Positions 43,780 through 64,000 of a stretch of DNA of 64,000 nt are shown one piece after another. The notes beneath the pieces are model-generated. The model saw only the letters and a list, made by a program, of their open reading frames with translations, did no database searches and had not been told where the DNA came from. The stretch comes from an uncultured Bacilli bacterium. Lineage in GTDB: Bacteria > Bacillota_I > Bacilli_A > RFN20 > CAG-631. The stretch lies in contig CANQTM010000003.1 in the NCBI GenBank assembly GCA_947626825.1, positions 40,692 to 104,691 on the forward strand. The letters run 5' to 3'. The translations under genes and the position numbers were made by a program. Within the stretch, counting starts at the first letter, position 1. Every line of letters starts with the position of its first letter.

Positions 43780-45312
43780 TTATAATAATGATTGGAAAAT
43801 TTTTAAAAATGATATTAATAATCTCATAAAGAAATTATATTTTAATTCTTTTGGTGGAACAAGTTTGGATTTAGCAAAATCATCATCAAAATCCTTTTTA
43901 ATATCTAAAATACAATCTGAATTATATATCCAAACACCACATTCATAATGGTGAAGTAAAGATCGAAAATCTAAATTTGTAGTTCCAACATAAGCAACCT
44001 CATCATCAATTAAAAATGTTTTTGCATGGTTGAATCCAGGTGTAAATTTATATATTTCTACACCATTAATTGCTAATTCATAGGCAGCCGATTTAGTAAA
44101 TGCATATACTAAAGCTTTATCTGGCGTTGCAGGTATTAATAAACGAACTTTAACTCCTCTAGCAACAGCAGCAATTAAAGCATTAGATATTGCATAATCT
44201 ATAATCAAATAAGGAGTTGATATATCAATATTTTTACTTGCTTGATTAATTAAATTTAAAAAAGCATCAGTTGCAAAATTTTCATAGTATCTACTCCTCG
44301 GCCCTGTGCCATAAGGCATAACAATTTCATCATTTAAAATATCATTTAATGACTCATCATATAAATATTTTTCATAATTTTGTTGTTTTAAAGAAACAAT
44401 AGAAAAATTTTGTAAAAATAAAATAATTAAATTATTAATACCTTGGCCTGTTAAACGAACTGCATTATCTTTCCAATGTCCATATATTTGAACTAAATTC
44501 ATGTATTCATCAGAAATATTTATGCCACCTGTATAAGCAATTTTGCCATCAATAATTGCAATTTTTCTATGATCTCTATTATTATGATATGCCGATACAA
44601 ATGGCAACATTGTATTAAATTTATAACATTCTATGCCTAATTTTCTTAAATATTTATAATAACTTCCTCTTAAATATTTAACACAACCAACATCATCATA
44701 AATTAGTTTAACTTCTACACCTTCTTTTACTTTTTCTTTTAAAACATTTAAAATACTATTCCACATATGGCCGTGATTAATAATGAAATATTCTAAGAAA
44801 ATATATTTACTAGCATTTTCTAAATCTTTCATTAAACTTTCATAAAACTCTTTGCCATCTTTCAAAAAAGCGACTTTGGTATTTCTATAAGCTCTAAAAG
44901 ATGACATTGTTTCTAAATATTTTATTTGACCTGCATATTTATTGGCAATTTCGTATATTTTTTCTTGTTCTTTAACATTTTCTAAAGGCAAAGATGGCAA
45001 TTTAGCATATCTTCTTGTTCTTTTTGCCATTGGTTCTTCTGCTTTTAAAACAATATATATAACGATACCAACTATTGGGAAAGCAATTATCAAAAATGAC
45101 CAAAGCATTTTTTGTTCTGGTGGCACTTTATCATTAACAATTAAAACAAAAACAATTAAACCAATAATAGATGATATCAATTGGAAATAAACATATGATT
45201 CTGTTAAATTAAAAATATAATATGAAACAATAACTACTTGAGCAATAACAGAAATTGCCACAAAAAACAATCTACTAAAAATCAATTTAATGATTGATAA
45301 AAATTTTGCCAT
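43780..45312 (-). CDS. cls: Cardiolipin synthase (phospholipase D family, two HKD motifs)
   Basis: Two HxK(x)4D motifs are present (HRKIAIIDGKIAYTGGINISDE and HAKTFLIDDEVAYVGTTNLDFRS) after N-terminal TM segments. The start is taken at the ATG for MAKFLSII (45312) after AAGGAGG. The track ORF is 9 codons longer. Confidence 0.8.
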   Translation of the reverse strand: MAKFLSIIKLIFSRLFFVAISVIAQVVIVSYYIFNLTESYVYFQLISSIIGLIVFVLIVNDKVPPEQKMLWSFLIIAFPIVGIVIYIVLKAEEPMAKRTRRYAKLPSLPLENVKEQEKIYEIANKYAGQIKYLETMSSFRAYRNTKVAFLKDGKEFYESLMKDLENASKYIFLEYFIINHGHMWNSILNVLKEKVKEGVEVKLIYDDVGCVKYLRGSYYKYLRKLGIECYKFNTMLPFVSAYHNNRDHRKIAIIDGKIAYTGGINISDEYMNLVQIYGHWKDNAVRLTGQGINNLIILFLQNFSIVSLKQQNYEKYLYDESLNDILNDEIVMPYGTGPRSRYYENFATDAFLNLINQASKNIDISTPYLIIDYAISNALIAAVARGVKVRLLIPATPDKALVYAFTKSAAYELAINGVEIYKFTPGFNHAKTFLIDDEVAYVGTTNLDFRSLLHHYECGVWIYNSDCILDIKKDFDDDFAKSKLVPPKELKYNFFMRLLISFLKIFQSLL

Positions 45313-45313
45313 T

Positions 45314-46114
45314 TTATAGTTTCGCCTCCTTATATTCATATTTTAAATAATAATCTTGTAAAATACCACGATATGAATTTTTCCATGGTTTATTACGACC
45401 AAAATAATGGATAATACTACAATTTTGCTCAACCCAATTTAAATCAATTTTATTAACTAAATGTTTTAAATTATATAAAGTAATAGTTCTATCTGATAAA
45501 TTATATTTCAAATGATCAATTTGTAAAACTTTATCTCCATATAATCCTTGTAAAACATCTTGATCAGGTAACATTAAAGTCATTCTTTTCTTTAAAATAA
45601 AGTTATAAACTTCTTTACTTTGATCAAATTTTCGTAATTCTTTTAAATTAATTAATAATACACCTGTGTTAAGATATGGAGCTTTTTTAGGAGCACCATT
45701 TTTAACTTCATTAAATTTTCTTAAAATGTTTTTAACATTACTTGAACCAATGTAATAATTACCATTAAAATCAGAATTATATAAATCACTTAAATCTTTT
45801 AATACAATTATATCAGGATCAAGATATAATATTCTATCTAAATCATTAGGTAAAAATTTAGCAGCTAATAAACGATAATAAATTACTGATGGATATCTTT
45901 TGCTAGTAGGAGCACTATCTAATATTTCATCTTCAAAATGAATAATAGTGAACTTAACATTATCTACATGATAATTTTTAAAATCAGATATTGTTAAATC
46001 ATTCGCAACTACATAAACATTTAAAATATGTTTAGAATTATTAAAAGACAAAGAATTTAACATTGTAAATAATATTTTTAAATATTTTTTATTAATTGTT
46101 ACTAAAATATTCAT
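45314..46114 (-). CDS. Glycosyltransferase family 8 protein
   Basis: GT8 pattern with YLDPDIIVLKD and NTGVLLINL. The start is at the ATG for MNILVTIN (46114) after GAGGT. It is 1 nt from the cls start. Confidence 0.65.
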   Translation of the reverse strand: MNILVTINKKYLKILFTMLNSLSFNNSKHILNVYVVANDLTISDFKNYHVDNVKFTIIHFEDEILDSAPTSKRYPSVIYYRLLAAKFLPNDLDRILYLDPDIIVLKDLSDLYNSDFNGNYYIGSSNVKNILRKFNEVKNGAPKKAPYLNTGVLLINLKELRKFDQSKEVYNFILKKRMTLMLPDQDVLQGLYGDKVLQIDHLKYNLSDRTITLYNLKHLVNKIDLNWVEQNCSIIHYFGRNKPWKNSYRGILQDYYLKYEYKEAKL

Positions 46115-49837: not shown

Positions 49838-52462
49838 TTGGAGGGTAAAAATATGTTTAAAAAATTATTAGGTATACTCTTATTGATTGGTTTAGTAAGT
49901 TGTGATGCAAACGAAATAAGCCATTCTTTAGACTCAACACCAAGCACTCAAGATTCTTCATCTAGTAGTGCTGATGAATCTTTATCAAACTCAAATTCGA
50001 GCAGTAGTTTTGATTCATCATCTTCTAGTGATTCAAGTGCAACAGAAGTTATTACATCAATTGTAATAAATAATAAAATTGATGAATTAGTTCAAGGTTC
50101 AACGCACACATTAAATGTTGCAGTAACACCATCTTCATTGGCAAGTCAAGTTGTTTATAAATCATCATTGCCATCTTGTGCATCAATAAGTAATGATGGT
50201 CAAATAACTGCATTGCTTCCTGGTTCAACTATTATTACTGTTTCAGCACCTGATTATTCAATTAGTGATTCTTTTACATTAAAAGTAACAAAGAAAATCA
50301 TTCATGTTGAAAATGTAACTATAAATAATAGTGAAACAGAAATGGTTGAAACAACTACATTAAAATTAGATGTAACAGTTTCACCACAAGATGCCACAAA
50401 TAAAGAATTAACTTATACAAGTAGTGATAATAGTTATGCTACTGTTTCTAATGATGGACTAATTACTGCTTTAAAACCAACTCTTGAAGGACAACCAGTT
50501 GTAATAAAAGCAATTTCAAAAGATAATACTCAAATAGAAGACTCTTTATCTTTAACAATTAAAAGAAAAGCTATTTCAGTTCAAAGTATCACAGCAACAT
50601 TATTATCAAATGATATCATGCCAAATGATAAAATAAATTTTGAGGTAACATTATTACCTGAAAATGCTGATAATAAAGAATATACTGTTACAACTACAAC
50701 TCCTGAAATTTTAGAAGTTGGAAATAATAATGTTGTTACAGCTTTAAAAGAAGGTTTAGGAAAATTAACATTTACATCTAACGATGTTCCAACAGTTACT
50801 ACTAGTTTAGATGTTCCTGTATTAAAATCAACAAATTATGATTATATTAAAGAAAAATTAGCTGAAGCTTCTACTATTGAACATGAAAGTGCAAGTAGTG
50901 GACATTTTGAAAAAAATGAAAAAAGTTTTTATGATGATGAGCCAGAAGTAATTACAAATAATTGGACAGTTTATACTGATGGTGTAATGATTGATAGAAA
51001 CGATAATTTAGGTCATACAAAAAAATTATCAGTTAAAAACGGCAATATGCTTTGTGTTTTAGAAGATTCAACAAGTGACTATAGTAGTTATAATGGAGTT
51101 ACTTATGAAGAAGATGAATTCGATGATTGGTTTAATAAAGAAGAAAATGCATTCTTACCTGAAATCGAAAGTTCTAGTAATAGCGTTGGTTTATGTAACT
51201 ATATTGCTGACTATTTAGATAATTATTCATCATTCTCTAAAGACGAAATTGTTGAAAATGCTAGAGTTATAGTTAAACCAGGTAGCAATCAAGAAACAAT
51301 TACCCTAACTAGTTCGGCAGAATATAATGATTCTTATTGGGATGAAAGCGTTTCTTACATGGAAGTTAGTATGAAATTAATTTTCAATGAAAACAATGCT
51401 TTAGTAAGTTTTGAAAGTTCTTATCTTAAAATAGATAGTGATAATTATGATGCTGAAAATCATACATCAATTGACGAAAGCCAAAATGATACAACAGTTA
51501 TAAGTGCAACTATAAATTATGATACACGTGTAGCCACTGATGACAACAGAATTAAAAAAGAAGATTATTATGTCACTTCATTTGAAATTGATACATCTAA
51601 TTTTATCGATGGTAATAAAATCAATTTAAAAGAAGATGTAAATATTGCTGTTATAAATGAAGTTCCAGAAAGACACCTTGAAGAAAAATATACTGTTTCA
51701 TCAAACAACGAAAGCATTATTGAATGTTATAATTCAAATAGAACAAGTATTTGCGGCCAAAGTGAAGGACAAGCAACAATAACTGTCACTTCAGAAGGCG
51801 GTGTTTCTGCATCAATTGAACTTACTGTAATCGTTCCTGAAGTTAGTTCAATATCACTTTCTTATTTACCTTCATCTATGAGAGTTGGCGAAAAACAAGA
51901 AGAAATTTATGCTGTTGTTAATCCTAGTGGTGCAGATCAAAGTTATGAAATTGTTTTAACAGAAGATTCTAAAGATTTTGCTACTTTAGAAAAAGTAAAT
52001 GATAAATATGATTTAACTGCTATTGCTCCAGGAAAAGTAACAATCATTGCAAGAAGTTTATCTAAACCAGAAATAACTGATGAAGAAACAATTACAATTA
52101 AACCTGAACTTAACGTTGAAAGTGCTAAAGAAACATTAATCAATAACACATATTCTGCTGGATATTCTGGCAATGAAACTCTAGTATTTAATGGAGATGG
52201 AACTGGCGTACTTAAAGTTGATGGTGGTGGTGAATTTACATTTAAATGGGAACTAGTATTAACTGAAACATGGTTAGGACAATCTTTCCAATTAAATATA
52301 ACTGATATAGTGGAAATTTCTAGTTCAGAAGATGATTATTTATATAAAGGAACTACATCTACATGGACTGTTTCAGAGGATGCAGATCAAATTTCTGTAA
52401 AAATATATGATGATTTCTGGGAAGAAGATACTACACTAACTTATGAATTGGTAAGTGAATAA
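49838..52462 (+). CDS. Large surface lipoprotein with Ser-rich linker and Big_2-type Ig-like domains
   Basis: 874 aa. The N-terminus has a lipobox LVSC at MFKKLLGILLLIGLVSCD. There is a Ser-rich low-complexity stretch (aa 30-70) and a Big_2-like segment (VTSIVINN...LNVAVTPSS...ISNDGQITALLPG). Confidence 0.6.
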   Translation: MEGKNMFKKLLGILLLIGLVSCDANEISHSLDSTPSTQDSSSSSADESLSNSNSSSSFDSSSSSDSSATEVITSIVINNKIDELVQGSTHTLNVAVTPSSLASQVVYKSSLPSCASISNDGQITALLPGSTIITVSAPDYSISDSFTLKVTKKIIHVENVTINNSETEMVETTTLKLDVTVSPQDATNKELTYTSSDNSYATVSNDGLITALKPTLEGQPVVIKAISKDNTQIEDSLSLTIKRKAISVQSITATLLSNDIMPNDKINFEVTLLPENADNKEYTVTTTTPEILEVGNNNVVTALKEGLGKLTFTSNDVPTVTTSLDVPVLKSTNYDYIKEKLAEASTIEHESASSGHFEKNEKSFYDDEPEVITNNWTVYTDGVMIDRNDNLGHTKKLSVKNGNMLCVLEDSTSDYSSYNGVTYEEDEFDDWFNKEENAFLPEIESSSNSVGLCNYIADYLDNYSSFSKDEIVENARVIVKPGSNQETITLTSSAEYNDSYWDESVSYMEVSMKLIFNENNALVSFESSYLKIDSDNYDAENHTSIDESQNDTTVISATINYDTRVATDDNRIKKEDYYVTSFEIDTSNFIDGNKINLKEDVNIAVINEVPERHLEEKYTVSSNNESIIECYNSNRTSICGQSEGQATITVTSEGGVSASIELTVIVPEVSSISLSYLPSSMRVGEKQEEIYAVVNPSGADQSYEIVLTEDSKDFATLEKVNDKYDLTAIAPGKVTIIARSLSKPEITDEETITIKPELNVESAKETLINNTYSAGYSGNETLVFNGDGTGVLKVDGGGEFTFKWELVLTETWLGQSFQLNITDIVEISSSEDDYLYKGTTSTWTVSEDADQISVKIYDDFWEEDTTLTYELVSE

Positions 52463-53851
52463 TTGGAGAAAATAATAAAAATGAAAAAAATTTATTTATT
52501 ATTAGGAATTGCATTAGGACTTTGTAGTTGTGGTGGCAACACCATAACTACAAGCAATAGTTCTTCATCAAATGTTGAAGAACAAACCACTTTAAATATT
52601 ATTGGCCCTAATGAAGTTTCAATTGGTGATGTTGTCAAATATACAGTTGAACCAAACATTGATGTAAGTTTTCAAAGTTCTGATGATTTAGTTTTAAGTA
52701 TTAATGGCAGAGGTGAAGCTACAACATTTAAAGAAGGTCAAGTTACAATTACAGCAACATCTAAAGAAGATGCAAATGTTAAAGGAACTTTAAATGTTAA
52801 AGTTAATCCTGCAAAAATGCAATTACCAAATGATTATTTAGGAATTACCGAATTAATTAATAAAGCCAAAGAACTTGAAAGTTCAGCTAGCGAAATTTCA
52901 ATGGAAACAATTAAAACAGATCTTAAAGAAACAAGATTACAAAATGTTAAACTTTATGATGGTAATTTCTATATTGAAACAATTGATGATGAATACACTA
53001 ATCATTCTGGATATACACATGAAATAACTACAGTATTTAATGGCGTTTATCAAAACAATTATTATGAAATCCATGATGGAAACATAGGTAGTTATGTTAT
53101 TAAACAAAAAATTGTTGATGAAAATGCTGTTAGAGACAATAATGAAATTTTAGAAAGTGATGCTATTAAAAAAGGCACAAATCCATCTTATGTTTCAGCT
53201 TTTACTTATGATATTTATTCATTATGGGGTGCAAGAACATTAGATTTAAAAATTGATGGTGAAGTCACAAATGAAGGCATGACATTAACATTAAGTAATA
53301 TTTATCTATTTTGTTGGGCTGATGGTGTCACAAATGAATCAACATATTATGAAACGACTTTAAAATTTGATAATGATGGTTTCCTATATGAAGGAATATA
53401 TCAAGAAATCGAATATCAAGAAAATCAATATGATACAAAAATCAATGATTTTGTTGAAGATGCTGAAATAAAAGACACAAAAACTGTGACATTTAATGCC
53501 AAAAAAGGCGTAAAATTTGCAAGCAATACTTCTAACATTTTACCAACAGATTATTTTGTATCATCTGTTACTAAAGCAAATTATGCAATAGATGTACATG
53601 TTAATGATCTAATTTTAGTTAGAAATGTTGAACTTGTTGAATATGAAGGTGCTAAAGCATTAGATATTGATGAAATTAAGATAATTGATGTTATTAATGA
53701 TGATGATAAAATATTATTATCTAAGGATGCCTTTTCTGGTCAATATATGGCTATGCAAGAAGGAACTGCATATTTACTTTGTCAAATGACTTATTCAAAT
53801 GATGTTCAATTTTTAGTTGAAATAGTAATCTTACCAAAGGAAGGTGCTTAA
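52463..53851 (+). CDS. Lipoprotein with Big_2-type Ig-like domain
   Basis: 462 aa. The N-terminus MKKIYLLLGIALGLCSCGG has a lipobox. A Big_2-like region follows (LNIIGPNEVSIGDVVKYTVEP). The start abuts the previous stop. Confidence 0.55.
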   Translation: MEKIIKMKKIYLLLGIALGLCSCGGNTITTSNSSSSNVEEQTTLNIIGPNEVSIGDVVKYTVEPNIDVSFQSSDDLVLSINGRGEATTFKEGQVTITATSKEDANVKGTLNVKVNPAKMQLPNDYLGITELINKAKELESSASEISMETIKTDLKETRLQNVKLYDGNFYIETIDDEYTNHSGYTHEITTVFNGVYQNNYYEIHDGNIGSYVIKQKIVDENAVRDNNEILESDAIKKGTNPSYVSAFTYDIYSLWGARTLDLKIDGEVTNEGMTLTLSNIYLFCWADGVTNESTYYETTLKFDNDGFLYEGIYQEIEYQENQYDTKINDFVEDAEIKDTKTVTFNAKKGVKFASNTSNILPTDYFVSSVTKANYAIDVHVNDLILVRNVELVEYEGAKALDIDEIKIIDVINDDDKILLSKDAFSGQYMAMQEGTAYLLCQMTYSNDVQFLVEIVILPKEGA

Positions 53852-56216
53852 AATGAAAAAATGCTTATTTGTTTTAGCAAGTTTTCTTTTATTATCGTCT
53901 TGTCAAAATAACCAAACAAGTAATAGTTTATCAAATACAGATAGTTCTTCTTCAAGTGAAGAAATTAAAAATGAAACTGTTGAAGATATTTTAAATAAAA
54001 TAGAAGATAATTATAGTGTTGTTTATACAAGTGCTTCTGGAAAATATCATATTTATAAAACAAAAAATTATTTTTATGATGAAGAAATTGGTGGCGGACA
54101 ATTTGTTTTAGATGACGATACAATGTATATATATACTGTTCATAACAATGTAATCGTTCCAAGAAATAAATATTCAGCAACTAGAACTGATTTTGAAAAT
54201 TTCTTTCCAAAATTTGAAGTTAACATGGATAAATTTGAAATAATAGATGACATGTATGTTACTTCTGATGCACAAACCATGACAAGTTTATGCAAATTAA
54301 TTAATATGTCTTCTTATAATCGTGCAGAATTATTCATGGATGATAATTTTCTTAATTTTAGATTTTATGATAATTACAATCGCATGTTGGTTAGTGGTAA
54401 ATTTTATGGGGTTGGTGAAACAAATTACAATATTTTAGATGAATATCTTAATCAAAAAATTGCACCAGAAACAGAAACTTACACAAATAGTCCACTAATT
54501 GATGTATTAGGCGATTTAAATAATAATATGACATTTGTTGGACAAAGTGTTACTTCCCATGAAGGCTTATCATTATTATTAACAGATAAATATTTAGCCA
54601 CTTTTTCAGGTAATGGTAAACAAATATCTGATGGTGATGGCTATTTACAATTAAATGACAATTTACATCAATTTACATTAAAAGATAATAAATTAGATGT
54701 AGATTATGAATATCTTGATACTGATGAAACATTAGACATGAAAAGTTTTACTCTTCAAAGACATGATTTTACAAAATTTAAAGAAATAGATACTAATACA
54801 TATATTTCAAGCGATTATTATAATGTTAAAAATTTAACAGATTTTCTATTATTAGATGCGCAAAATGTTAATTTAGTCAAAATAAAAGTTGACACAACAT
54901 CTAAAGAAGCAGAAATAACTTTTTTACAAGATCAAGTTGAATTATATACTGGAAGAATATTTAACATTAACTCTTCATCATTACCTCAACTTGATGAATA
55001 TTTAGAAAACAAATCCGAACCAGCATTGAAATATTATGAAAATAGTGAATTAATGGCTGCTGTTGCTAACTTAAATGATAATTTTACATATATTCGCGAT
55101 GATTTAACTCCACAAGATAATAATGAAGAAGGAATTGAATTTTATGGTGTACGATCAACTGTTAATGGTCGTAAAGAATACAAATCATATTATAATAATT
55201 TCCCATCAACTGATTATATCACTTATAATCAAAAAGCTTATCATTATGTATTAAATGGAGATAGTATCATTCTTAAAAATAATGGTTCAATATCAAAAAA
55301 TAAATATGAAGAATATTTTTCTTTTTCAAAAATTAATTTTCATTATTTTGAACCTTTAGGAAATAATAAATATTTTACTTCATCAACAAGAATATTAAGA
55401 CAATTATCAAAATTAATCAGTTCAAATCCATATAATTTAGGACGTTGTTATATAAGTATTGAAAATGGAACTATAAATATTGAAATGCAAGATCAATACT
55501 TAAATACTAATTCTATAGGTCATCTTGAAAAAATAAACGAAACCTCTTTACCAATGGTTGATAATTATAAAACAAATAATCAAGATGAAAACAATTTATT
55601 TCCAAAATATAATAATAGTAAAATTAAAGATGTTGTTAAACAAATCAATGATGGTAATAATTTTACAGTTGCTTATCAAGATGATATAGAATATGGCATA
55701 GAATTTACTGCAGATGATTATGATTATTATACAAATGAAACTATTTATTATGGTATGTATAAAGATGGTTTTATAACTGGATCGTTATCAAAATATATTT
55801 ATAATTTTGGTTGGGTAACTGATGAAGAAACAGAAGTTAGAGAATTCACATTAAGTGATCATCCATCATTATATTTAAGTAGTATGGCAGAAATGAATCC
55901 TTTCCAATCATTAAGTGATGACATGATTGATAGATTTGTTCCATATCAAAACAACAAATTTCTATCATTAGATGAAGATATTTGTAGCGTATTTAGTTTG
56001 GCACTACAAATGGGCGGTGTTGTTGATGTTGTTGGAGTTATGTTAAGTTTTAATAATAAAAATGAATTAGTAATTGAAGTTATTGATGAAATTGAAGTTA
56101 CTTATGACGAAAACAACATTCGTAACGAAGAATATATTGTTTTTGCAACAGCAATTATTACTGATGTAGGCACTACAAAAATTCCATCAAATGCTCTTAT
56201 TCCAACAATGAAATAA
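53844..56216 (+). CDS. Large hypothetical lipoprotein
   Basis: 790 aa. The signal and lipobox MKKCLFVLASFLLLSSCQNN are present. It overlaps the previous gene by 8 nt. No other domain was recognised. Confidence 0.5.
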   Translation: MLKMKKCLFVLASFLLLSSCQNNQTSNSLSNTDSSSSSEEIKNETVEDILNKIEDNYSVVYTSASGKYHIYKTKNYFYDEEIGGGQFVLDDDTMYIYTVHNNVIVPRNKYSATRTDFENFFPKFEVNMDKFEIIDDMYVTSDAQTMTSLCKLINMSSYNRAELFMDDNFLNFRFYDNYNRMLVSGKFYGVGETNYNILDEYLNQKIAPETETYTNSPLIDVLGDLNNNMTFVGQSVTSHEGLSLLLTDKYLATFSGNGKQISDGDGYLQLNDNLHQFTLKDNKLDVDYEYLDTDETLDMKSFTLQRHDFTKFKEIDTNTYISSDYYNVKNLTDFLLLDAQNVNLVKIKVDTTSKEAEITFLQDQVELYTGRIFNINSSSLPQLDEYLENKSEPALKYYENSELMAAVANLNDNFTYIRDDLTPQDNNEEGIEFYGVRSTVNGRKEYKSYYNNFPSTDYITYNQKAYHYVLNGDSIILKNNGSISKNKYEEYFSFSKINFHYFEPLGNNKYFTSSTRILRQLSKLISSNPYNLGRCYISIENGTINIEMQDQYLNTNSIGHLEKINETSLPMVDNYKTNNQDENNLFPKYNNSKIKDVVKQINDGNNFTVAYQDDIEYGIEFTADDYDYYTNETIYYGMYKDGFITGSLSKYIYNFGWVTDEETEVREFTLSDHPSLYLSSMAEMNPFQSLSDDMIDRFVPYQNNKFLSLDEDICSVFSLALQMGGVVDVVGVMLSFNNKNELVIEVIDEIEVTYDENNIRNEEYIVFATAIITDVGTTKIPSNALIPTMK

Positions 56217-56230: not shown

Positions 56231-56272
56231 AAAACTCTGTAATTTGATTAATTCATTTTATAGAGTTTTTTT
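56231..56272 (+). terminator. Rho-independent terminator after the lipoprotein operon
   Basis: aaaactctgtaa...tatagagttttttt: inverted repeat aactct/agagtt plus a T-run. Confidence 0.5.
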
Positions 56273-56400
56273 TACTTTTTTATATAATTATGTAGAAAAA
56301 ATATTTTTTAAAAAAATAACCTTTTTATATTATTAAAAAATGTTAATAAAACAATAAAAAAATGTTAAAATAATATTACAACATCTATTGGAGAAAAGAT

Positions 56401-59400
56401 ATGGGAAATATTGATAACAAATTCGAAATTTGGACAAAAAAACTTTATGATATATCTAAAAAAAATTATATGATTAATTTTAGAGGGCAAAAAAATCGAT
56501 GTTTAACAATAACTAAGCCTGATATTTTTGAATTATATGATTCTTTAGTATTTAAAGATAATTCTATGTCTTTTAAAAGAGCAATTACTGCTGATACAAA
56601 TTTCAATATTTTTGCTATTAATACTTTAATTAATTGTTTAGGTAATAGTACCATTTTTGAAGAAGGAGATATTTCTGTTGCACCGAAAGTCAACAAAACC
56701 CCATATTTTATTTTAAGAAACATTAAGAAAACTGCTAATTTTTTTAAACAAGAACAAGGCATTGATGTCATGTATATGACTTTTTTATATGTAAGATGGC
56801 ATCCAATTGGCTCAACAGATGAATATTTAACACCTTTAGTTAATGTTCCTGTTTCTTTAGAACAAGATAATATCTATTCATTATTTATATTAAAAAAACA
56901 AGGTGAACCTGAAATAAACCCAATATTTTTATATATGTTAGAGCAACAACAAATGACAATACCTTCTATAAATGACAAACCATTAAAAGAATATTTGGTA
57001 GAATTAGAAAAAATATTTGCAGATTTGGATTTTGAAATAATTCAACAGGCTAATCTATGTGTACTATTTTTCCAAAAAATGGTAATGTTTAAAGATTTAG
57101 TAAATAATAAAGAAAGAATTATAAATCATCCAATCATTAAAATGTTTTGTAATGATAATGAAGAAAATACGATTTTTGATTTAGATAATTTTCCACAAAT
57201 AAAAGAAAGCCAAAAAATTGTTGTAATTGATGCAGATTCAAGTCAAAGCAAGGCTTTAGATTTAGCAACTCAAGGGCAATCATTTGTATTGCAAGGCCCA
57301 CCTGGAACTGGCAAAAGTCAAACAATTACTAATATAATAGCAAGTCAAATATATCAAGGCAAAAAAATTCTATTTGTCTCGCAAAAGACTGCCGCTTTAG
57401 AAGTTGTTTTTAATATGCTTAAGAAAATTGGACTTAGTGATTTAGCCTTAACTTTACATAACAATAACAAATTAAATAAAAATGAAATTATAAATGAAAT
57501 TTATGCTCCTTTTTCATTTAAAAAGTTTAATGTTAAAGAAGAAAAAATAAATTATTTAATGAAAATCGATCAAATTTTAAATGATTTAGAACAATATAAT
57601 GAACTTTTAAATACCAAAGTTTATTCATTAAATGATACATTATATGAATTAATTAATAAATATTTTGATCTTATAGAAATATCAAAAAGTAATTTTAAAA
57701 TTAATTTTGATTTAACTTCATTAGATTATAAAACACTTCTAGAAAATGTAAATTCAATTAATCTTTTTGAAAACGAATGGAAATCAATTACAATAAATAA
57801 TGATGATTGTTATGATTATTTTGCTATTGACGATATATCATTACAAACCAAAGAAAAATTAGATAACGATTTATTATTAATTTACAATAAAATTGAACCA
57901 TTAGTAAACACATACTTGAATTTAAAAAAATATATTAGTAATTTATCTTTAACTTTTGATAATTCTTTAAATATTTTAGACGATTTAAATAAATTAAATA
58001 ATATTGATTTTAATGATATTAAAATAAACAATATTGAACTTTTAAATGAATATATCGATGATATTAATTTTTATTTAAAAAGTGATGAAGACTTAAAAAA
58101 GACATACCAAGAAATAAATAATATTTTTTATGATAATATTTTTAATATTGATATGAAAGAATTAGCAAATATTATTGAAAATAATCTTAATATTATTAAA
58201 ACTAATATTAAAGATTTTGCTAATTGTTCACATTACGAAATAATGCAACAATTAAATAATTATGCTAATAGTCTTAATAATTTTATCAATAATAAGGAAA
58301 CATTTGATAAAACAACTAATTATTTAACAACTTTATTACATGTTTCTTTGGATACTTTATTATCTTATGACTTATACCATATAAATGAAGAATTAAAAAA
58401 TAACACATATTCTTTAAGTTATTTTTCTGTAGCTTATAGTAATTATGATGTTGTTATAAATAATTTAAATAGATATAAAGAATTAAAAGAAAACCAAAAA
58501 CATTTAAAAAAATTAATTACTAATTTATCATATGAAGCTATTTTAACTTTAAATGAAAATCAAGTAGATAATTATTTAATTATTTTAGATGAAAAAACTA
58601 ATTGGTTTAATTTTAGTAAAAAAGAAGCTAAAAAAGATGTTATTAATAAAATATCAACTTATTTATACGATAATCAAACAAATATAGAAACTGTTATAAA
58701 CATTTTACATCTTGTTAAAAATTATCAAGAAATTACTAATCACTTAAAGCAATTAGGTCAAGCAATAAAGCCATTATTAAATGACACGATTAATCTTGAT
58801 AATAGTGAAATTGACTGCCAAAGTTATATCAATGAATTAGACAAATTGCATCATATTATTATATTATTACCAAATGTTAAAGAAAATATTTTAAAAAGTA
58901 TTTTAAGTTTTGATAATGCTTTAAATTTTAAAAATAATCTTTACAATCTTTTAGAATGTTTACCAATGGTTATAAATAATTATGATAATGATTTACAAAC
59001 TTTAATAGAAAACGAAAAAATTGTAAATGAAACATTAAAATTTGTTAACACATTAAAATTATATTGTAAAGATTTTACACTATTAAAAGATATTGAAAAC
59101 AAATATATTTATTTAAAAAATTATGCTAAAATCAAACAAGAAAATCAAGAAAAGAAAACTATTTTAGATAATATTTTTACATATGATATTTTAAAATCAA
59201 AAAAGCAATTATTTTATATAAATCAAATTAATTGTTTTGCCAAAACATATAATTTAAATCAAAACGAATTATTATTAAATTTAATAAATCACTCAAAAGA
59301 TATTTTCTTTCTTATTTTGCAATTTAAAGAAAGATATAGCCAATCTTTACCATCATATAATCATTTTAAAGAAATGTTTACCAAAGAAAAAAATCTTGAA

Positions 59401-61809
59401 AATTATGATTTAAAAGAATTGTTAGATTTAATTTATCGTTGTCAATTGAATATTAACACATTAAAAGATAAGAAAAGATTTAATAAAAATTTAATAAATT
59501 ATCGTTCAAATCCTTATTTAACCAATTTTATTGATTATTGTCTTGAAAATAATTTAAAAGAAGATTTAGCTAATATTTATTTAAAAAAGATTTATCATAA
59601 TTTAATTGAAAATTTTATTTATGATAATGATATTTTAGAAAATTTAAATAAAACAAAATTAGATAATGATATAAAAGAATTAGAAAAATTAAGTTATTAT
59701 CAAATGGAAATTTCAAGACAACAAGTGAAAAGTGCTTGGATAGATAATGTTCCATCGATTAAAACAATAATGGCTAGTAATGATGAAAGAAACTTTTTAC
59801 AAAATGAAAAAAGAAAAGTTAGAAAAAAATCATTAAGAGTAATTTTAGATCACATACCTCATATTTTAATGGCATTAAAACCATGTTTGATGATGTCACC
59901 ATTAACTGTTTCTAATTATCTTGAAAATGATAATTATGATTTTGATTTAGTTATTTTTGATGAAGCTTCACAAATAAAACCAGAAGAAGCAATCGGATCA
60001 ATTTATCGAGGAAAACAAGTTATAATTGCTGGTGATAGCAAACAATTACCACCAACAAGTTTCTTTGAAAAACAAATAGAAAATGATGAAGATTATGATG
60101 ATGAAGACATCGATGAAACTATTGATGAATCAATTTTAGATTTAGCATCTAGAAAATTACCATCAATCACTTTATTATGGCATTATCGTAGTAAAATTGA
60201 AAGTTTAATTGCTTTTTCTAATAATAATTTTTATGACAATGAATTAATAACTATTCCATCTGCTAAACAAAATCAAATTGATTATGGCATTGAATATATT
60301 AAAGTTGATGGCATTTATGAAAAAAATAGCCGTTATGCTAATGTTATCGAAGCCAAAAAGGTTGTAGAATTAATTTATCAACATATTTTAAACCATAATG
60401 ATAAATCATTAGGAATCATTGCTTTTGGCGAAAGACAAAGAAATACTATTGAAAAAGTATTATTTGATTATCGAAAAAATTTAAAAAATCAAGATGAAAA
60501 GCTTTTTAAAGAAAGTGAAGAATTCTTTAATAATAATGATAAAGAACCATTTTTTATTAAAAATATTGAAAATGTTCAAGGCGATGAAAGAGATGTCATT
60601 ATATTTTCAATAGGTTATGGTCCTGATGAAGAAAATAACTTTAAATATAATTTTGGACCTTTGTCGAAACAAGGCGGACAAAGAAGATTAAATGTCGCTA
60701 TTTCAAGAGCAAAATATAATCTTAAAATAGTTTGTTCTTTTTTACCAACTGATTTAGAATTATCACGAATTGAATCTGAAGGTGGACGTTTATTTAAAGA
60801 ATATCTTGAATATGCCCAAATGGTTTCACTTGGTATTCATAAATTTAATGATGATATTTTATCAGTTGATGGTGTAAAAGCAAGCATTGCATCATTTTTA
60901 CATGAAAATGGTTATAAATATTTATTAAACTATGGCTATTCGTCTTTTAAAATCGATATTGCTATATTTAATCCTAATGATGATAAGCAATTAATTTGTG
61001 GAATTATAATTGATAATCAAGATGCTAATATTACCATTAAAGATAAAGAAGTTATTCTAAAAAAAGTTTTATATTATAATGAATGGAAAATTTACAATGT
61101 AAATTGCAAACTTTATTTTGAAAATCCTTCATTTATTAATGAAAACATTTTAGAATTCTTAAACAATAATATAGTTGAAGAAAAAATTGATTTAATAACC
61201 ACTGATGAAAATGATTTAATTACTATTAAAGAAGATGAAAGTGATGATACTAGTTATAATTTTATATTATATCAAGAATTTGATTTTAATGAATATTTAG
61301 CTATTAATGGTTTAACAGATGTCAAACTTTGGGTCATTGATGAAAAAATAATGACTGCATTTTTAAACAAAGAAGGTCCAACTTTATTTAAAATATTAGT
61401 TGATAAATTTGCTAAAGCATTTAATGCAACAGCAAAAGAAATAACAGGTAGTATTCAAAAAGTTATCACAAAAGAACCATTTATATGGAATCGACAAAAT
61501 AACTTTGTTTATAATAGTCATGAAAATCCTTGTATTGTTCGTCAATGCATTGATAACAAAAGTAGAAGTTTTGAAAGTATTTATCCATTAGAAATTAGTA
61601 ATTGCTTAACCACAATTATTCGTCAAAATATTGGTTTATCTGCTGATGGCATTATTGAAGAAGCTATGCGTATTTATAATCAAAAAAATAAATCTGCATC
61701 TTTAATAATAAATTATAAAACACATTTAGAACGTTTAAAAGAAGATAAAAAAATTCAAGAAATAAATGGCGTCTATACAATTTATCAAGGAGGGAAAAAT
61801 CATGAATGA
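56401..61809 (+). CDS. Giant SF1 (Upf1/DNA2-like) helicase with DUF4011-like N-terminal domain and C-terminal Vsr/DUF559-like PD-(D/E)xK nuclease plus DUF3320-like tail
   Basis: 1802 aa. Walker A VLQGPPGTGKSQTITNII is at about aa 297. About 800 aa of K/N/L/I-rich low-complexity helical insertion follows. Motif II is VIFDEASQ, motif III IIAGDSKQLPPT, motif VI GGQRRLNVAISRAKYNL. After that, FKIDIAIFNPND...GIIIDNQD looks like an endonuclease core. Domain names are from recall of this architecture and are not searched. Confidence 0.75.
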   Translation: MGNIDNKFEIWTKKLYDISKKNYMINFRGQKNRCLTITKPDIFELYDSLVFKDNSMSFKRAITADTNFNIFAINTLINCLGNSTIFEEGDISVAPKVNKTPYFILRNIKKTANFFKQEQGIDVMYMTFLYVRWHPIGSTDEYLTPLVNVPVSLEQDNIYSLFILKKQGEPEINPIFLYMLEQQQMTIPSINDKPLKEYLVELEKIFADLDFEIIQQANLCVLFFQKMVMFKDLVNNKERIINHPIIKMFCNDNEENTIFDLDNFPQIKESQKIVVIDADSSQSKALDLATQGQSFVLQGPPGTGKSQTITNIIASQIYQGKKILFVSQKTAALEVVFNMLKKIGLSDLALTLHNNNKLNKNEIINEIYAPFSFKKFNVKEEKINYLMKIDQILNDLEQYNELLNTKVYSLNDTLYELINKYFDLIEISKSNFKINFDLTSLDYKTLLENVNSINLFENEWKSITINNDDCYDYFAIDDISLQTKEKLDNDLLLIYNKIEPLVNTYLNLKKYISNLSLTFDNSLNILDDLNKLNNIDFNDIKINNIELLNEYIDDINFYLKSDEDLKKTYQEINNIFYDNIFNIDMKELANIIENNLNIIKTNIKDFANCSHYEIMQQLNNYANSLNNFINNKETFDKTTNYLTTLLHVSLDTLLSYDLYHINEELKNNTYSLSYFSVAYSNYDVVINNLNRYKELKENQKHLKKLITNLSYEAILTLNENQVDNYLIILDEKTNWFNFSKKEAKKDVINKISTYLYDNQTNIETVINILHLVKNYQEITNHLKQLGQAIKPLLNDTINLDNSEIDCQSYINELDKLHHIIILLPNVKENILKSILSFDNALNFKNNLYNLLECLPMVINNYDNDLQTLIENEKIVNETLKFVNTLKLYCKDFTLLKDIENKYIYLKNYAKIKQENQEKKTILDNIFTYDILKSKKQLFYINQINCFAKTYNLNQNELLLNLINHSKDIFFLILQFKERYSQSLPSYNHFKEMFTKEKNLENYDLKELLDLIYRCQLNINTLKDKKRFNKNLINYRSNPYLTNFIDYCLENNLKEDLANIYLKKIYHNLIENFIYDNDILENLNKTKLDNDIKELEKLSYYQMEISRQQVKSAWIDNVPSIKTIMASNDERNFLQNEKRKVRKKSLRVILDHIPHILMALKPCLMMSPLTVSNYLENDNYDFDLVIFDEASQIKPEEAIGSIYRGKQVIIAGDSKQLPPTSFFEKQIENDEDYDDEDIDETIDESILDLASRKLPSITLLWHYRSKIESLIAFSNNNFYDNELITIPSAKQNQIDYGIEYIKVDGIYEKNSRYANVIEAKKVVELIYQHILNHNDKSLGIIAFGERQRNTIEKVLFDYRKNLKNQDEKLFKESEEFFNNNDKEPFFIKNIENVQGDERDVIIFSIGYGPDEENNFKYNFGPLSKQGGQRRLNVAISRAKYNLKIVCSFLPTDLELSRIESEGGRLFKEYLEYAQMVSLGIHKFNDDILSVDGVKASIASFLHENGYKYLLNYGYSSFKIDIAIFNPNDDKQLICGIIIDNQDANITIKDKEVILKKVLYYNEWKIYNVNCKLYFENPSFINENILEFLNNNIVEEKIDLITTDENDLITIKEDESDDTSYNFILYQEFDFNEYLAINGLTDVKLWVIDEKIMTAFLNKEGPTLFKILVDKFAKAFNATAKEITGSIQKVITKEPFIWNRQNNFVYNSHENPCIVRQCIDNKSRSFESIYPLEISNCLTTIIRQNIGLSADGIIEEAMRIYNQKNKSASLIINYKTHLERLKEDKKIQEINGVYTIYQGGKNHE

Positions 61810-63499
61810 AAATATTAATCGTGAAACATTATTAAACCCTTTATTATTCAATGATAAAAGTGAAACGACAAATAATGATGATGAAAACAATGATGTAATC
61901 AACAAAGATACTATTTTAAATAATAAATATCTAATTATTGATAGACTTCAAGATTCATCATCAAAAACACAAGTTTATGTAGCTAAATATAATAATCAAT
62001 ATTATACACTTAAAGTTTATAATAAAGATTTTAAAATTTCTTTAGATATTTTAGATATCTTAAAAAAATTAGAATTTGATTATCTTGAAAAAATATATGA
62101 ATTTTTTGAACTTGATGATCAAAGACAAGTTATTGTTAGTAAATATTATTTAAATGGAAATTTAAAAGACAAAAAAATTTCTATAAAAGATTTAAAAGAC
62201 TATATAATTCCATCATTAAATGAAGCAATAAATATTTTGCATGAAAATCACATTTTACATATGGATATTAAACCTGCTAATATTATGTTTGCCGATGATA
62301 AAAAACATGTTGTTTTAATCGATTATAGTTCAGCATTAAAAATAAATAATATAAAAGATGTAATAATTTGCCAAAAGCCATTTATTACACCTCATTATAG
62401 TGCTATTGAAACATGTACTTCTCACCAATGTTCTATTTATTCAGATTATTATTCATTTGGAATTACTTTATATGAATTATTATTAGGACATAGTCCTTTT
62501 ATAAATTTAGATGATGAACAGATTATTCGTTTTATGCAAACTAATAGATTAGCCTTTGATGAGTCAATTGATTTGAATTTTAAAAATTTAATTTTAGGAT
62601 TAACTTATCGTGATATTGCCAATCGTAATGATTATAATAATTTTAATGTTCGTTGGACTTATAAACAAGTATCTGATTGGTTAAATGGTAAAACAATGAT
62701 TGTTCCTGGTGAAGGTATATTAACAAAAACAAATATAATGCCATTTAATTTTAAAAATAAAGTTTATTTAAATGTAGATGAATTAATTGATGCTTTAGCA
62801 ATAAATTGGAATGATGGCATTAGATGTTTAAGTTCAAAAAATTTATCAAATTATTTTAAAAACATTAATCATCAATATTACGAAATAACATTAAATTTTG
62901 AAATTAAATTTTTTGATAAAAACATTAAAATTAATCCTGATGTAGAATTTTTTAAATATATTTATACATTATTACCACAAACAAGTAAATTTTATTATAA
63001 AGGATTTGTTTATGAATCTATACAAGATTTAGGTTTTGCTTTAATTGATACATTAGATGCCAATAAAGACACAGAAACATCAGCAAACTTTTTTAAAAAT
63101 TTATTAAAGAACAAAATATTATCAACTTATTGCTCATTGAAATCAATTGATAACCAAGAAATGATTGACATGATAAAAGAAATTGAAAATACTTTTCAAA
63201 GTGAACTTTTGACTAATAGAGAGAAACAAAAAAATCTATATACATTAAGTTACATTCTTACAGGGCAAAAAGAATATAAAATAGATGATCAAATTTTTAA
63301 CAATAAAGATGATTTTATTAATTATATTGTTGATGCCTATAAAAAGTCATTTACCGATTTGAATAAAATTTGTAAAACATTAATGCCAAGACGCAATTTA
63401 GATGTTAAATTAGAAGCGTGGCTTGATGCATTAGGTTATAAAAATGAAGTTAATAAATTTATTGCCTTAATTACTACTCAAGGAGGTGATGAGGAATGA
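61802..63499 (+). CDS. Eukaryotic-like Ser/Thr protein-kinase-like protein with about 280-aa uncharacterised C-terminal domain
   Basis: The start is at ATG 61802 after AGGAGGG and overlaps the helicase stop by 8 nt. Kinase motifs are a beta3 Lys (YTLKVY), a catalytic loop HMDIKPANIMF, a DYS in the DFG position, and an APE-like TPHYSAIE...SDYYSFGITLYELLLGHSPF. Confidence 0.65.
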   Translation: MNENINRETLLNPLLFNDKSETTNNDDENNDVINKDTILNNKYLIIDRLQDSSSKTQVYVAKYNNQYYTLKVYNKDFKISLDILDILKKLEFDYLEKIYEFFELDDQRQVIVSKYYLNGNLKDKKISIKDLKDYIIPSLNEAINILHENHILHMDIKPANIMFADDKKHVVLIDYSSALKINNIKDVIICQKPFITPHYSAIETCTSHQCSIYSDYYSFGITLYELLLGHSPFINLDDEQIIRFMQTNRLAFDESIDLNFKNLILGLTYRDIANRNDYNNFNVRWTYKQVSDWLNGKTMIVPGEGILTKTNIMPFNFKNKVYLNVDELIDALAINWNDGIRCLSSKNLSNYFKNINHQYYEITLNFEIKFFDKNIKINPDVEFFKYIYTLLPQTSKFYYKGFVYESIQDLGFALIDTLDANKDTETSANFFKNLLKNKILSTYCSLKSIDNQEMIDMIKEIENTFQSELLTNREKQKNLYTLSYILTGQKEYKIDDQIFNNKDDFINYIVDAYKKSFTDLNKICKTLMPRRNLDVKLEAWLDALGYKNEVNKFIALITTQGGDEE

Positions 63500-64000
63500 G
63501 CGGACCAAAATATAATCGTTACCGTATGTTAGAAGCAAAAAGAAGAGAATTATTGAAATTGCAAATTCAAAAAGAATTATATAATAAAGAAAATGTTCGA
63601 GTAAATAAATTAATTATTGCTGAAAATGATGGTATTACAGTCGCCAAACGCCAAATTGATAAGCAAAAAGAAGTAACATTAAAAAATATTAAAACATATT
63701 TAAATAATATTAAAATTGAATTAGAAAAATTGAAAAATAATAGCGACACTATTATAGCAATCAACGATGATTCAATTTTAAAGTTTTATAATGAATATTA
63801 CCAAATTTATCAAAATCTTGTTATTGAAAGTTCTTATTTAAACAATACAGTAACATTAAAAGAATTAGATAAATATTATCAAAAAATTAACAATACTTTT
63901 TTTGAAATATGTAATTATAATATTACTTCATTAAAAAAAGTAAAACAAAAAGAAAAACAACTAAAAGTTGATCTATCTAATAAATTAAATGATAATTTAG
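63496..64000 (+). CDS. Hypothetical coiled-coil protein, partial (runs off window end)
   Basis: ATG 63496 overlaps the kinase stop (ATGA) and follows GGAGGTGATGAGGA. The frame stays open for 168 codons to the window end (MSGPKYNRYRMLEAKRRELLKLQIQ...). It is not in the supplied track because no stop codon is reached. Confidence 0.55.
   Translation, partial: MSGPKYNRYRMLEAKRRELLKLQIQKELYNKENVRVNKLIIAENDGITVAKRQIDKQKEVTLKNIKTYLNNIKIELEKLKNNSDTIIAINDDSILKFYNEYYQIYQNLVIESSYLNNTVTLKELDKYYQKINNTFFEICNYNITSLKKVKQKEKQLKVDLSNKLNDNL

Follow-up and report, generated by a model that had tools for sequence, protein, structure and literature searches.

An operon around an Hhe-like helicase and a Ser/Thr kinase as a probable phospho-threonine-regulated defence system

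Hhe, attributed to Gao et al. (2020), is reportedly a single-gene defence protein that joins a DUF4011 domain, an SF1 helicase and a Vsr/REase-like domain, and to our knowledge the mechanism of giant helicase-nucleases of this type is largely unknown. In Mokosh type I the MkoA helicase, which sometimes carries a Ser/Thr kinase domain, acts with the PLD nuclease MkoB. The threonine-phosphorylation pathway of the T6SS is formed by the PpkA kinase, the PP2C phosphatase PppA, Fha1 and the AAA+ protein ClpV, with phospho-Fha promoting assembly and the recruitment of ClpV. The kinase-kinase-phosphatase module of Pf prophages, KKP, comprises a PP2C phosphatase and, after it, two kinases that carry fused CSD and FHA domains, and its toxic phosphorylation defends once a phage protein inhibits the phosphatase (PMC11341870).

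The window, the whole stretch of 64,000 nucleotides analysed here, ends within a chain of three genes encoding a helicase, a protein kinase and a coiled-coil protein of a family designated X (Table 1). The initial annotation had taken this trio as a unit; related loci show instead an operon of 6-8 genes that continues with zinc-ribbon/FHA, radical-SAM (rSAM) and AAA+ genes, with or without PP2C, and by comparison with them the trio is the 5' half of that conserved operon, cut by the window end. The operon most likely represents an unnamed phospho-threonine-regulated anti-phage or anti-plasmid system built around an Hhe-like helicase, for which we infer both the defence role and the mechanism.

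Table 1. Positions of the features of the operon in the window and in its proteins.
Feature	Position	Strand	Details
Candidate intrinsic terminator	56231..56277 (hairpin 56231-56269)	+	AT-rich hairpin + U-run; 3' of lipoprotein gene
Candidate extended -10 promoter	56343-56371	+	TTAATA-17-TAAAAT with TG; 5' of ORF1
Shine-Dalgarno	56390-56393	+	GGAG; 5' of ORF1
ORF1, helicase	56401-61809	+	1802 aa
DUF4011	ORF1 aa 14-180		Pfam 65 bits, cut-off 22
Upf1-like SF1 helicase	ORF1		split by ~780-aa helical insert; Pfam AAA_11/AAA_12/AAA_19
Walker A GPPGTGKS	ORF1 aa 299-306 (K305)		
DEAS motif	ORF1 aa 1187-1190		
Motif VI RRLNVA	ORF1 aa 1428-1433		
REase (MTES_1575)-like domain	60883..61158 (ORF1 aa 1495-1586)	+	Pfam 34.3 bits, cut-off 38.2
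Further C-terminal domain	ORF1, after REase-like domain		
ORF2, kinase	61802-63499	+	565 aa
T-[ILV]-[IL]-N motifs of N-terminal tail	ORF2 aa 9-12, 37-40		
Hanks kinase domain	ORF2 aa 60-275		K71, HMD D155, N160, D174 (DYS replacing DFG)
C-terminal domain	ORF2 aa ~262-565		three beta-hairpin + helical-bundle repeats
ORF3 (family X)	63496-64000, running past window end	+	first 168 aa

The overlaps that chain the three genes had been described before and are both seen. The first, ATGAATGA (61802-61809), holds the ATG of ORF2 (61802-61804) and the TGA of ORF1 (61807-61809); the second, ATGA (63496-63499), holds the ATG of ORF3 (63496-63498) and the TGA of ORF2 (63497-63499). Both the 8-nt and the 4-nt overlap are present in the relative L097, the 8-nt helicase/kinase overlap also in L002 and L098, and relatives with recurring overlaps stand at 43-61% protein identity. 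An earlier ORF2 start in the ORF listing (ATG 61766) was rejected, as the homologues begin at 61802, which is preceded by a GGAGGG Shine-Dalgarno sequence. A Mollicutes-type code with TGA read as Trp was likewise rejected: Trp is encoded by TGG (9 in ORF1) and table 11 fits. In-frame TGA is absent from the 1802 + 565 codons of ORF1 and ORF2, and TGA stops 6 of 51 long ORFs. The window genome is Bacillota-like, with 25% GC, code 11 and use of T-boxes; the operon has 21% GC, slightly under the 25% of the rest of the window.

The lipoprotein cluster reported upstream consists of three ORFs, all with lipoboxes. The terminator proposed between this cluster and the operon is borne out as a structure, its hairpin folding as RNA at -20.2 kcal/mol (z = -4.87 vs shuffles) ahead of a U-run, and fails in a GC-biased consensus terminator scan, which found nothing at that position; an intrinsic terminator isolating the operon from the upstream lipoprotein gene is plausible. 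Evidence for the ORF1 promoter is weak, because the AT-rich DNA of the window holds no more promoter-like sites than its shuffled versions do. A cardiolipin-synthase-like PLD is encoded at 43780-45339, 11 kb from the operon and on the opposite strand.

The identification of ORF1 as an 1802-aa SF1 helicase with a DUF4011 domain stands, with scores above the Pfam cut-offs for DUF4011, AAA_11, AAA_12 and AAA_19 (65 bits each for AAA_11 and AAA_12) and IGHMBP2, Sen1 and Upf1 as PDB relatives. In PADLOC it matches PDC-S37 with 906 bits, Hhe with 386 and MkoA with 111. Its best NCBIfam match is ProA (NF058533; 882 bits, under the 1500 cut-off, model positions 853-1899), which is also the best match of the L002 helicase (1000 bits), and the Hhe equivalog NF042953 gives 566 bits, under its cut-off of 2000. 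Judged by these matches, the ORF1 helicase is an already catalogued defence candidate (PADLOC PDC-S37) and a relative of the validated Hhe and of NCBIfam ProA. It is the only protein of the whole operon to match known defence models (PDC-S37, with ProA and Hhe below cut-off), none of the others matching any NCBIfam 'Pro' model. A literature search found no source paper for ProA.

The C-terminal nuclease of the initial annotation is present as a REase-like domain; it scores under the Pfam cut-off and has lost a conserved Glu. Alignment of 11 helicases sets KIDIAI ... IIIDN ... KDKE ... NVNC of the window against IDIAV ... IECDG ... RDRE ... RVWS of the family, so that the D ... E-x-D ... R motif is not intact, IECDG being changed to IIIDN and RVWS to NVNC. 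None of the four members of the window's AT-rich clade has the Glu, which Clostridial and proteobacterial members keep. Because of this loss and the low score, the nuclease of the window clade may be inactive, in which case a D/E-K mutant would be uninformative for the window protein; activity may nonetheless survive the Glu-to-Ile change.

The Pkinase domain (PF00069, 90 bits vs a cut-off of 31.7) confirms the second protein as a kinase with a C-terminal domain of its own, as had been proposed, its length being 565 aa and not 566. K71, H153/D155/N160 and D174 are invariant among 17 ORF2 homologues and the Gly-rich loop is atypical; on domain score and catalytic residues ORF2 is a Hanks-type Ser/Thr protein kinase. 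Weaker matches are to the PD-T4-6 and mad6 models and to the MkoA N-terminus (61 bits, PADLOC). The third gene is, as described before, a coiled-coil ORF running beyond the window end. Full-length X proteins of relatives have ~420-460 aa, those of the surveyed loci ~430-455 aa, and ~455 aa are expected for that of the window; they share an invariant MSGPKxxRY N-terminus and a long coiled coil, to which full-length relatives add a small C-terminal beta5-alpha domain. ORF3 shares 43% identity with the L097 member and 35% with that of L002, and the family counts 818 representatives at 50% clustering. Neither the C-terminal domain of ORF2, compared with family models and folds, nor X, searched against Pfam, NCBIfam and PADLOC and by a structural model (P0130, pLDDT 77), gave a match, and two protein families without model or fold match are thus defined.

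The synteny survey took in about a dozen loci, with 9 non-redundant loci for the helicase and 8 with downstream sequence. The expected co-occurrence of the three genes was found: the helicase lies directly 5' of the kinase in 8/9 loci, and X lies 3' of the kinase in 8/8, accompanied in all of them by zinc-ribbon/FHA, NrdG-like rSAM and ClpB-D2-like AAA+ genes. PP2C follows in 5/8 loci and is absent from the window's clade (L002, L097, L098), DUF4236 is sometimes present, and the junctions overlap or abut. The order in the AT-rich clade is DUF4011-SF1 helicase, Ser/Thr kinase, X, zinc-ribbon+FHA, NrdG-like rSAM and ClpB-D2-like AAA+. Since the window ends before them, the FHA, rSAM and AAA+ genes of its genome are an extrapolation from relatives with 54-61% kinase identity; lengths of ~211, ~204 and ~617 aa would be expected for the zinc-ribbon/FHA, rSAM and AAA+ proteins, respectively. 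As a negative control, 80 loci around unrelated Ser/Thr kinases sharing the generic catalytic-loop pattern were analyzed; the helicase, X, rSAM, AAA+ N-domain and kinase C-terminal domain occurred in 0/80, FHA in 6/80 and PP2C in 13/80.

The motifs of the downstream proteins are intact in relatives (rSAM CX3CX2C/GGDP, FHA GR/SxxH/N, PP2C DGVGG/DD, AAA+ Walker A/B). The rSAM scores 87-110 bits against TIGR02491 (NrdG; cut-off 126) with the CX3CX2C cluster motif present; no glycyl-radical motif RVxG[FWY] is conserved in the operon proteins, and aerobes, among them Rhizobium and Acinetobacter, have the gene too. The architecture varies, with seven genes in the Clostridial operon and 3-4 in the Rhizobium/Caballeronia form; the operon is present, for example, in Aristaeella lactis (NZ_CP069422.1, 15062-28538) and C. 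thermosuccinogenes, and the shorter form in R. leguminosarum (NZ_CP090092.1, 295317-305413). One helicase-less locus has an LRR protein in the helicase's place, and Rhizobium (two species) and Caballeronia plasmids carry a kinase::helicase-nuclease fusion of ~2100 aa (Pkinase+DUF4011+SF1+MTES_1575) that adjoins AAA+ and NrdG-like rSAM genes. No PP2C or FHA gene was seen beside these proteobacterial fusion loci, and a 452-aa gene 3' of the Rhizobium fusion was rejected as X (hhalign probability 1%). A large subfamily of Hhe-type helicases is in this way connected with a kinase, through translational coupling of separate genes in Bacillota and as one fused protein in Proteobacteria, and a ClpB-like AAA+ and a small rSAM always accompany it. 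In an Acinetobacter plasmid the AAA+/rSAM pair stands with an MkoA-like helicase (320 bits) and a PIN protein. Identity between loci is 56-70% for AAA+, 47-58% for rSAM, 35-46% for the helicase and 33-38% for X, a gradient that would be expected if effectors are conserved while sensors diversify.

The genomic surroundings of the related loci point to defence. Their neighbours include GmrSD, a resolvase, a caspase-like peptidase and IS elements, in Aristaeella the operon is on a plasmid, and a distant relative of the kinase adjoins type I RM/GmrSD/HNH genes. The proposal that the combination is unnamed agrees with PADLOC-DB v2, NCBIfam r20, the PGAP names on plasmids and a literature search, which found no description of it; the helicase by itself is already catalogued as PDC-S37. 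Neither X nor the AAA+ N-domain nor the kinase C-terminal domain had matches among viral and phage sequences, and a further homology search with the AAA+ N-domain gave mostly truncated proteins. The further suggestion that the operon is accessory cargo is unsupported for the window genome, since the ~15 kb of the window that precede it are free of defence genes.

Under the defence reading, the sensor of foreign nucleic acid or of a phage protein would be the helicase, a fast-evolving protein, perhaps aided by the C-terminal domain of the kinase. Sensing would activate the kinase and lead to threonine phosphorylation; candidate phosphosites are the repeated T-x-x-N motifs in the N-terminal tail of the kinase itself, or else positions in X or in the helicase. 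The FHA protein would read the phospho-threonine and, with X as a coiled-coil scaffold, recruit the conserved AAA+/rSAM pair, which would carry out the response together with the REase domain where this is intact; PP2C would reset the switch. The window's clade has lost the nuclease Glu and has no PP2C, and its helicase would accordingly be a sensor or motor and not the nuclease effector. If the operon is a defence system, it offers a tractable entry into signalling by Hhe-type helicases and adds to bacterial immunity a full phospho-threonine writer/reader/eraser circuit and a new AAA+/rSAM effector pair, common to Mokosh-like helicases. A broader proposal, at present doubtful, is that of an undescribed immune family with a conserved effector pair of ClpB-like unfoldase and NrdG-like rSAM, driven through Ser/Thr phosphorylation by Upf1-like helicases of DUF4011/Hhe or MkoA type. 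The Bacillota form would then, just as tentatively, be the one with the complete writer/reader/eraser circuit (kinase, FHA, PP2C) and a new coiled-coil adaptor. Were this so, the system would be a bacterial immune pathway built like eukaryotic DNA-damage and innate-immune kinase signalling, and its radical chemistry would be an effector mode of a new kind.

The alternative that survives best, although unlikely, is a housekeeping or stress module in which the kinase/FHA/PP2C threonine-phosphorylation circuit would control the Upf1-like helicase and the unfoldase in DNA/RNA quality control or replication stress. The window shows no defence island around the operon, other samples of the species have the same lipoprotein gene on its 5' side, and kinase/FHA/PP2C sets are common regulators, as their frequencies in the control loci illustrate. 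In P. aeruginosa, a DUF4011 gene beside a radical-SAM gene belongs to the core genome and not to an island, which counts against the defence reading. Against a housekeeping role stand the patchy distribution across Clostridia, Bacilli-like MAGs, Alpha- and Betaproteobacteria and plasmids, the GmrSD, resolvase and IS neighbours, the modular architecture with LRR swap, PP2C loss and fusion, and the defence models matched by the helicase.

Considerably less probable is abortive infection of the KKP kind, with the kinase as toxin, PP2C as antitoxin, and the helicase, AAA+ and rSAM as accessory or unrelated genes. Modules of kinase, PP2C and FHA can indeed defend through toxic phosphorylation (PMC11341870), and single-gene kinase defences exist, such as those of the PD-T4-6 and mad6 models that ORF2 matches; but the window's clade has no PP2C, the proteobacterial kinase is fused to a helicase with neither PP2C nor FHA seen beside it, and the most conserved genes are AAA+ and rSAM. 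Finally, a self-contained three-gene system, with the nuclease as effector and unrelated downstream neighbours, would fit the translational coupling of helicase, kinase and X, the single-gene action of Hhe-like helicase-nucleases implied by their PADLOC/NCBIfam names and the mostly solitary DUF4011 helicases of plasmids, but is very improbable given that FHA, rSAM and AAA+ genes continue every related locus with overlapping or abutting junctions, that the kinase::helicase fusion, too, keeps AAA+ and rSAM beside it across phyla and that the window's clade has lost the nuclease Glu.

Several known systems resemble the operon in part. ORF1 resembles Hhe/PDC-S37 in its domain order, DUF4011, Upf1-like SF1 with a large insert, MTES_1575 REase-like and C-terminal domain, all in one polypeptide with the REase below cut-off. 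However, Hhe and PDC-S37 are catalogued as single genes, whereas the ORF1 helicase overlaps the kinase gene or is fused with it, in 6-8 gene synteny with X, FHA, rSAM, AAA+ and sometimes PP2C; ORF1 also falls under the NCBIfam equivalog cut-off and lacks, in the window's clade, the nuclease Glu. The ProA model has ~350 N-terminal positions additional to those of ORF1. KKP provides a precedent in anti-phage defence for a Ser/Thr kinase, PP2C and FHA acting as a phosphorylation switch, but it consists of three genes of Gram-negative prophages with no helicase, AAA+ or rSAM, while the operon has a single kinase, an FHA gene apart from it, no CSD, no phage matches and, in the window clade, no PP2C. 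The combination of an Upf1-like helicase with a kinase domain, and the AAA+/rSAM pair beside the MkoA-like helicase of Acinetobacter, recall Mokosh type I. The helicase of the operon is nevertheless of DUF4011/Hhe type, the MkoA matches are weak (61-111 bits), MkoB is lacking, with a PLD gene in no related operon, and FHA, X, rSAM and AAA+ are extra. Membership in MADS is not indicated, MAD6 remaining under cut-off (59 bits for ORF2, cut-off 460) and no methyltransferase being found in the operon, nor in the TerY-P triad (TerY vWA, PP2C and Ser/Thr kinase), as vWA/TerY occurs in no locus. With the T6SS pathway the operon has four kinds of parts in common, a Hanks kinase, PP2C, an FHA reader and a ClpB-family AAA+, but it differs in having no T6SS structural genes and in its AAA+, which in relatives has one ring, of D2 type, and an N-domain of its own. 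This resemblance is taken as a working analogy for the flow of the signal, functional only and without membership.

The genes of the giant helicase (ORF1), the Ser/Thr kinase (ORF2) and the coiled-coil protein (ORF3, family X) lie on one strand and, as the initial annotation claimed, are chained by start/stop overlaps, with a strong Shine-Dalgarno sequence before each start. The genetic code was checked because the DNA is only 21-25% GC: TGG is a Trp codon, no in-frame TGA occurs and TGA stops 6 of 51 long ORFs, hence table 11 applies. The operon indeed follows a lipoprotein cluster, with lipoboxes in all three upstream ORFs and a Pfam domain (Big_2) in the first only. In another sample (L087) the helicase gene is preceded by the same gene of 787-790 aa. 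A plausible candidate for the proposed upstream terminator is a hairpin and U-run folding much better than shuffles, although a GC-biased consensus scan did not pick it up. GC content is 21.4% in the operon (56401-64000) against 25.3% in 1-56400, with an 18% minimum within the helicase insert, a mild drop that is not decisive for horizontal origin. Elsewhere, a T-box leader upstream of a 330-aa ORF, presumably an aminoacyl-tRNA synthetase, supports a Bacillota-type host, and genes turn from mostly minus to mostly plus at the cumulative GC-skew minimum, a pattern that would be expected near a replication origin.

Coordinates of features in the window and in homologous loci (L numbers)
Feature	Position	Strand	Detail
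330-aa ORF	12026-13018		
T-box leader	13060-13262	-	98.5 bits
GC-skew minimum	~26000-29000		
Three lipoprotein genes	49838-56216		874, 462, 790 aa; Ser-rich linkers after lipobox
Hairpin + U-run	56231-56277		z = -4.9
ORF1	56401-61809	+	1802 aa
ORF1/ORF2 overlap	61802-61809		ATGAATGA
ORF2	61802-63499	+	565 aa
ORF2/ORF3 overlap	63496-63499		ATGA
ORF3	63496 to window end	+	168 aa seen
X N-terminus	63496-63522; L005:11887-13176 and relatives		M-S-G-P-K-x-x-R-Y
ORF between helicase and kinase	L004:9591-9998		135 aa
DUF4236, Clostridial	L004:16953-17915; L093:17672-18601		
DUF4236, Aristaeella plasmid	L092:4446-5792	-	
DUF4236, Caballeronia	L105:10082-11815		
DUF6273 proteins and kinases	L092:20197-24569; L089-L091 ~8078-12376		
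pNDM1_010055 cluster	L102:1737-13709		

Full-length kinase homologues (146 matches) were mapped onto contigs for a gene-neighbourhood survey. In the closest relative (L097), whose kinase is 61% identical to ORF2, helicase, kinase and X (455 aa, its start again in an ATGA overlap) are followed by a zinc-ribbon/FHA protein (211 aa), an NrdG-like radical-SAM enzyme (rSAM, 204 aa) and a ClpB-D2-like AAA+ ATPase cut by the contig end. The same six genes occur in L002/L003 and L098; C. thermosuccinogenes (L005/L006) adds a PP2C phosphatase, whereas PP2C and DUF4236 are both added in GCA_017887325 (L004), with GmrSD upstream and ParAB downstream, and in L093-96, with a caspase-like peptidase gene upstream. 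An Aristaeella lactis plasmid carries seven genes under generic PGAP names only, then a DUF6273 protein and a second kinase, and L088 is without the helicase and has an LRR_5 gene inserted. HMMs built from the operon genes, run over all fetched loci, placed the helicase upstream of the kinase in 8 of 9 non-redundant loci and X, FHA, rSAM and AAA+ downstream in 8/8; PP2C was found in five of the eight and is missing from the window's AT-rich clade. None of 80 control loci around unrelated bacterial Ser/Thr kinases held the helicase, X, an operon-type rSAM, the AAA+ N-domain or the kinase C-terminal domain, while FHA was present in 6 and PP2C in 13. The proposed synteny thus extends to other genomes, but the three genes are not the whole unit: gene order indicates that the operon genes in the window form the first half of a system of six to eight genes around a known kind of defence helicase. 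A DUF4236 protein, possibly a further component, recurs beside the operon in Clostridial loci and on the Aristaeella plasmid; in Caballeronia its gene immediately precedes the AAA+ gene.

The helicase assignment of ORF1 stands, with Pfam DUF4011 and SF1 domains (AAA_19, AAA_11, AAA_12), the latter interrupted by a ~780-aa insert; its relatives of solved structure are the Upf1-like IGHMBP2, Sen1 and Upf1. Among PADLOC models it matches the candidate PDC-S37 at 906 bits and Hhe at 386 bits. Its NCBIfam matches, 'anti-phage protein ProA' at 882 bits and Hhe at 566 bits, lie below the respective cut-offs of 1500 and 2000. The claimed C-terminal nuclease holds only in part. A REase-like MTES_1575 domain is present, but scores 34.3 bits against a Pfam cut-off of 38.2, and the family motif IDIAV...IECDG...RDRE...RVWS, retained in Clostridial and proteobacterial helicases, reads IDIAI...IIIDN...KDKE...NVNC in the window. 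The conserved Glu is replaced by a hydrophobic residue in 4/4 clade members (window, L097, L002, L098); the nuclease is probably degenerate and may be inactive in this genome. In L004, the C-terminal end of the PDC-S37 model, positions 1438-1540, is matched by an ORF of its own, as if the helicase C-terminal domain had become a separate gene there. DUF4011/DUF3320 helicases occur on 461 plasmids and, in contrast to the kinase-linked ones, stand alone on both plasmids inspected.

ORF2 proved to be a Hanks kinase as annotated (Pkinase, 90 bits), with Lys71, His153-x-Asp155, Asn160 and Asp174 of the catalytic site invariant in 17 homologues. In all homologues the N-terminal tail has between one and three T-[VILM]-[ILVM]-N motifs. 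The ~300-aa C-terminal domain is predicted to form three beta-hairpin plus helical-bundle repeats (pLDDT 81), and the model gave no meaningful match in PDB fold comparison. DUF6273 proteins and DUF6273-fused kinases share this domain; on the Aristaeella plasmid one such pair comes after the operon, and others are found by themselves next to type I RM, GmrSD and HNH genes or prophage recombinases. ORF3, unmatched in Pfam, NCBIfam and PADLOC, is 43% identical to X of L097. The sizeable X family comprises 818 representatives at 50% clustering (325 below 1e-30), with a single architecture throughout the best 150 listed. Its N-terminus, invariant in 22 homologues otherwise only ~28% identical, might serve as a signal for processing, modification or AAA+ recognition.

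The downstream partners keep their catalytic sites in the relatives. The FHA protein has two zinc ribbons and a GR / SxxH / N phospho-threonine pocket; PP2C retains DGVGG and the C-terminal DD; the AAA+ protein, with intact Walker A and B, consists of one ClpB/ClpC D2-type ring that lacks a ClpP-docking loop, preceded by an N-domain of 280 aa that is conserved. The rSAM, NrdG-like below cut-off, has CX3CX2C and GGDP intact (in L088 the gene call is too short, the ORF complete). No glycyl-radical motif is conserved in its partner proteins, and an oxygen-labile glycyl radical is made less likely by the gene's presence in aerobes.

When plasmids were searched by tblastn with the AAA+ N-domain, matches came from Rhizobium, Caballeronia, Acinetobacter and Geminocystis. 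AAA+ and NrdG-like rSAM genes are followed, in R. leguminosarum, Rhizobium sp. 11515TR and Caballeronia, by one ~2100-aa protein uniting Pkinase, DUF4011, SF1 helicase and MTES_1575 (60 bits, above cut-off). Nothing supports joint function of the genes more strongly than this fusion, in a different phylum, of ORF2-type kinase domain and ORF1-type helicase beside the same AAA+ and rSAM partners. Acinetobacter sp. WCHA55 plasmid pNDM1_010055 carries in a row an MkoA-like helicase, a 720-aa PIN protein, a hypothetical protein, a ClpB-like AAA+ and an NrdG-like rSAM, then a second trio (small AAA ATPase, radical SAM, hypothetical protein); this NDM-1 plasmid seems to encode a related system that has no name. 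Such an association suggests that the AAA+/rSAM pair may serve several Upf1-like helicase systems.

A putative role in defence is favoured by the ORF1 model matches, by neighbours such as GmrSD, resolvase and IS elements, by the occurrence of the operon on plasmids and its patchy distribution among phyla, and by a related kinase that stands alone next to type I RM/GmrSD/HNH genes. Against it, a DUF4011 plus radical-SAM pair is core-genome in P. aeruginosa; within 15 kb upstream of the operon in the window no defence genes were found. In PADLOC v2 and NCBIfam r20, X, FHA, rSAM, AAA+ and PP2C matched no defence model other than PDC-M37B and DolB, through generic P-loop similarity, and ZorA, through coiled coils. 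No description of the operon was found in the literature; the source of 'ProA' was not located, and a prior description is possible. Within those databases and the literature searched the combination is unnamed, as anticipated. Hence, of the undescribed three-gene system first envisaged, a real, coupled, unnamed operon remains, with a helicase of already known kind, a probably degenerate nuclease and, by gene order, apparently only the front half of the system.

Between clades, AAA+ (56-70% identity) and rSAM (47-58%) are far better conserved than helicase (35-46%) and X (33-38%), which, together with the LRR protein in the helicase's place in L088, fits diversifying sensors and conserved effectors. 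Infection would be sensed by the helicase and/or the kinase C-terminal domain; the kinase would phosphorylate threonines; the FHA protein and X would then assemble the AAA+/rSAM pair, joined by the REase where active; and PP2C would reset the system. ORF1 is of the same kind as Hhe and ProA, yet falls under both NCBIfam equivalog cut-offs and is thus an equivalog of neither. For the mechanism, precedent is offered by the T6SS pathway, whose PpkA, PppA, Fha1 and ClpV are the same kinds of part as those of the operon. A further precedent is the KKP defence module, which is built of kinase, PP2C and FHA parts and is triggered by a phage protein that inhibits the phosphatase (PMC11341870).
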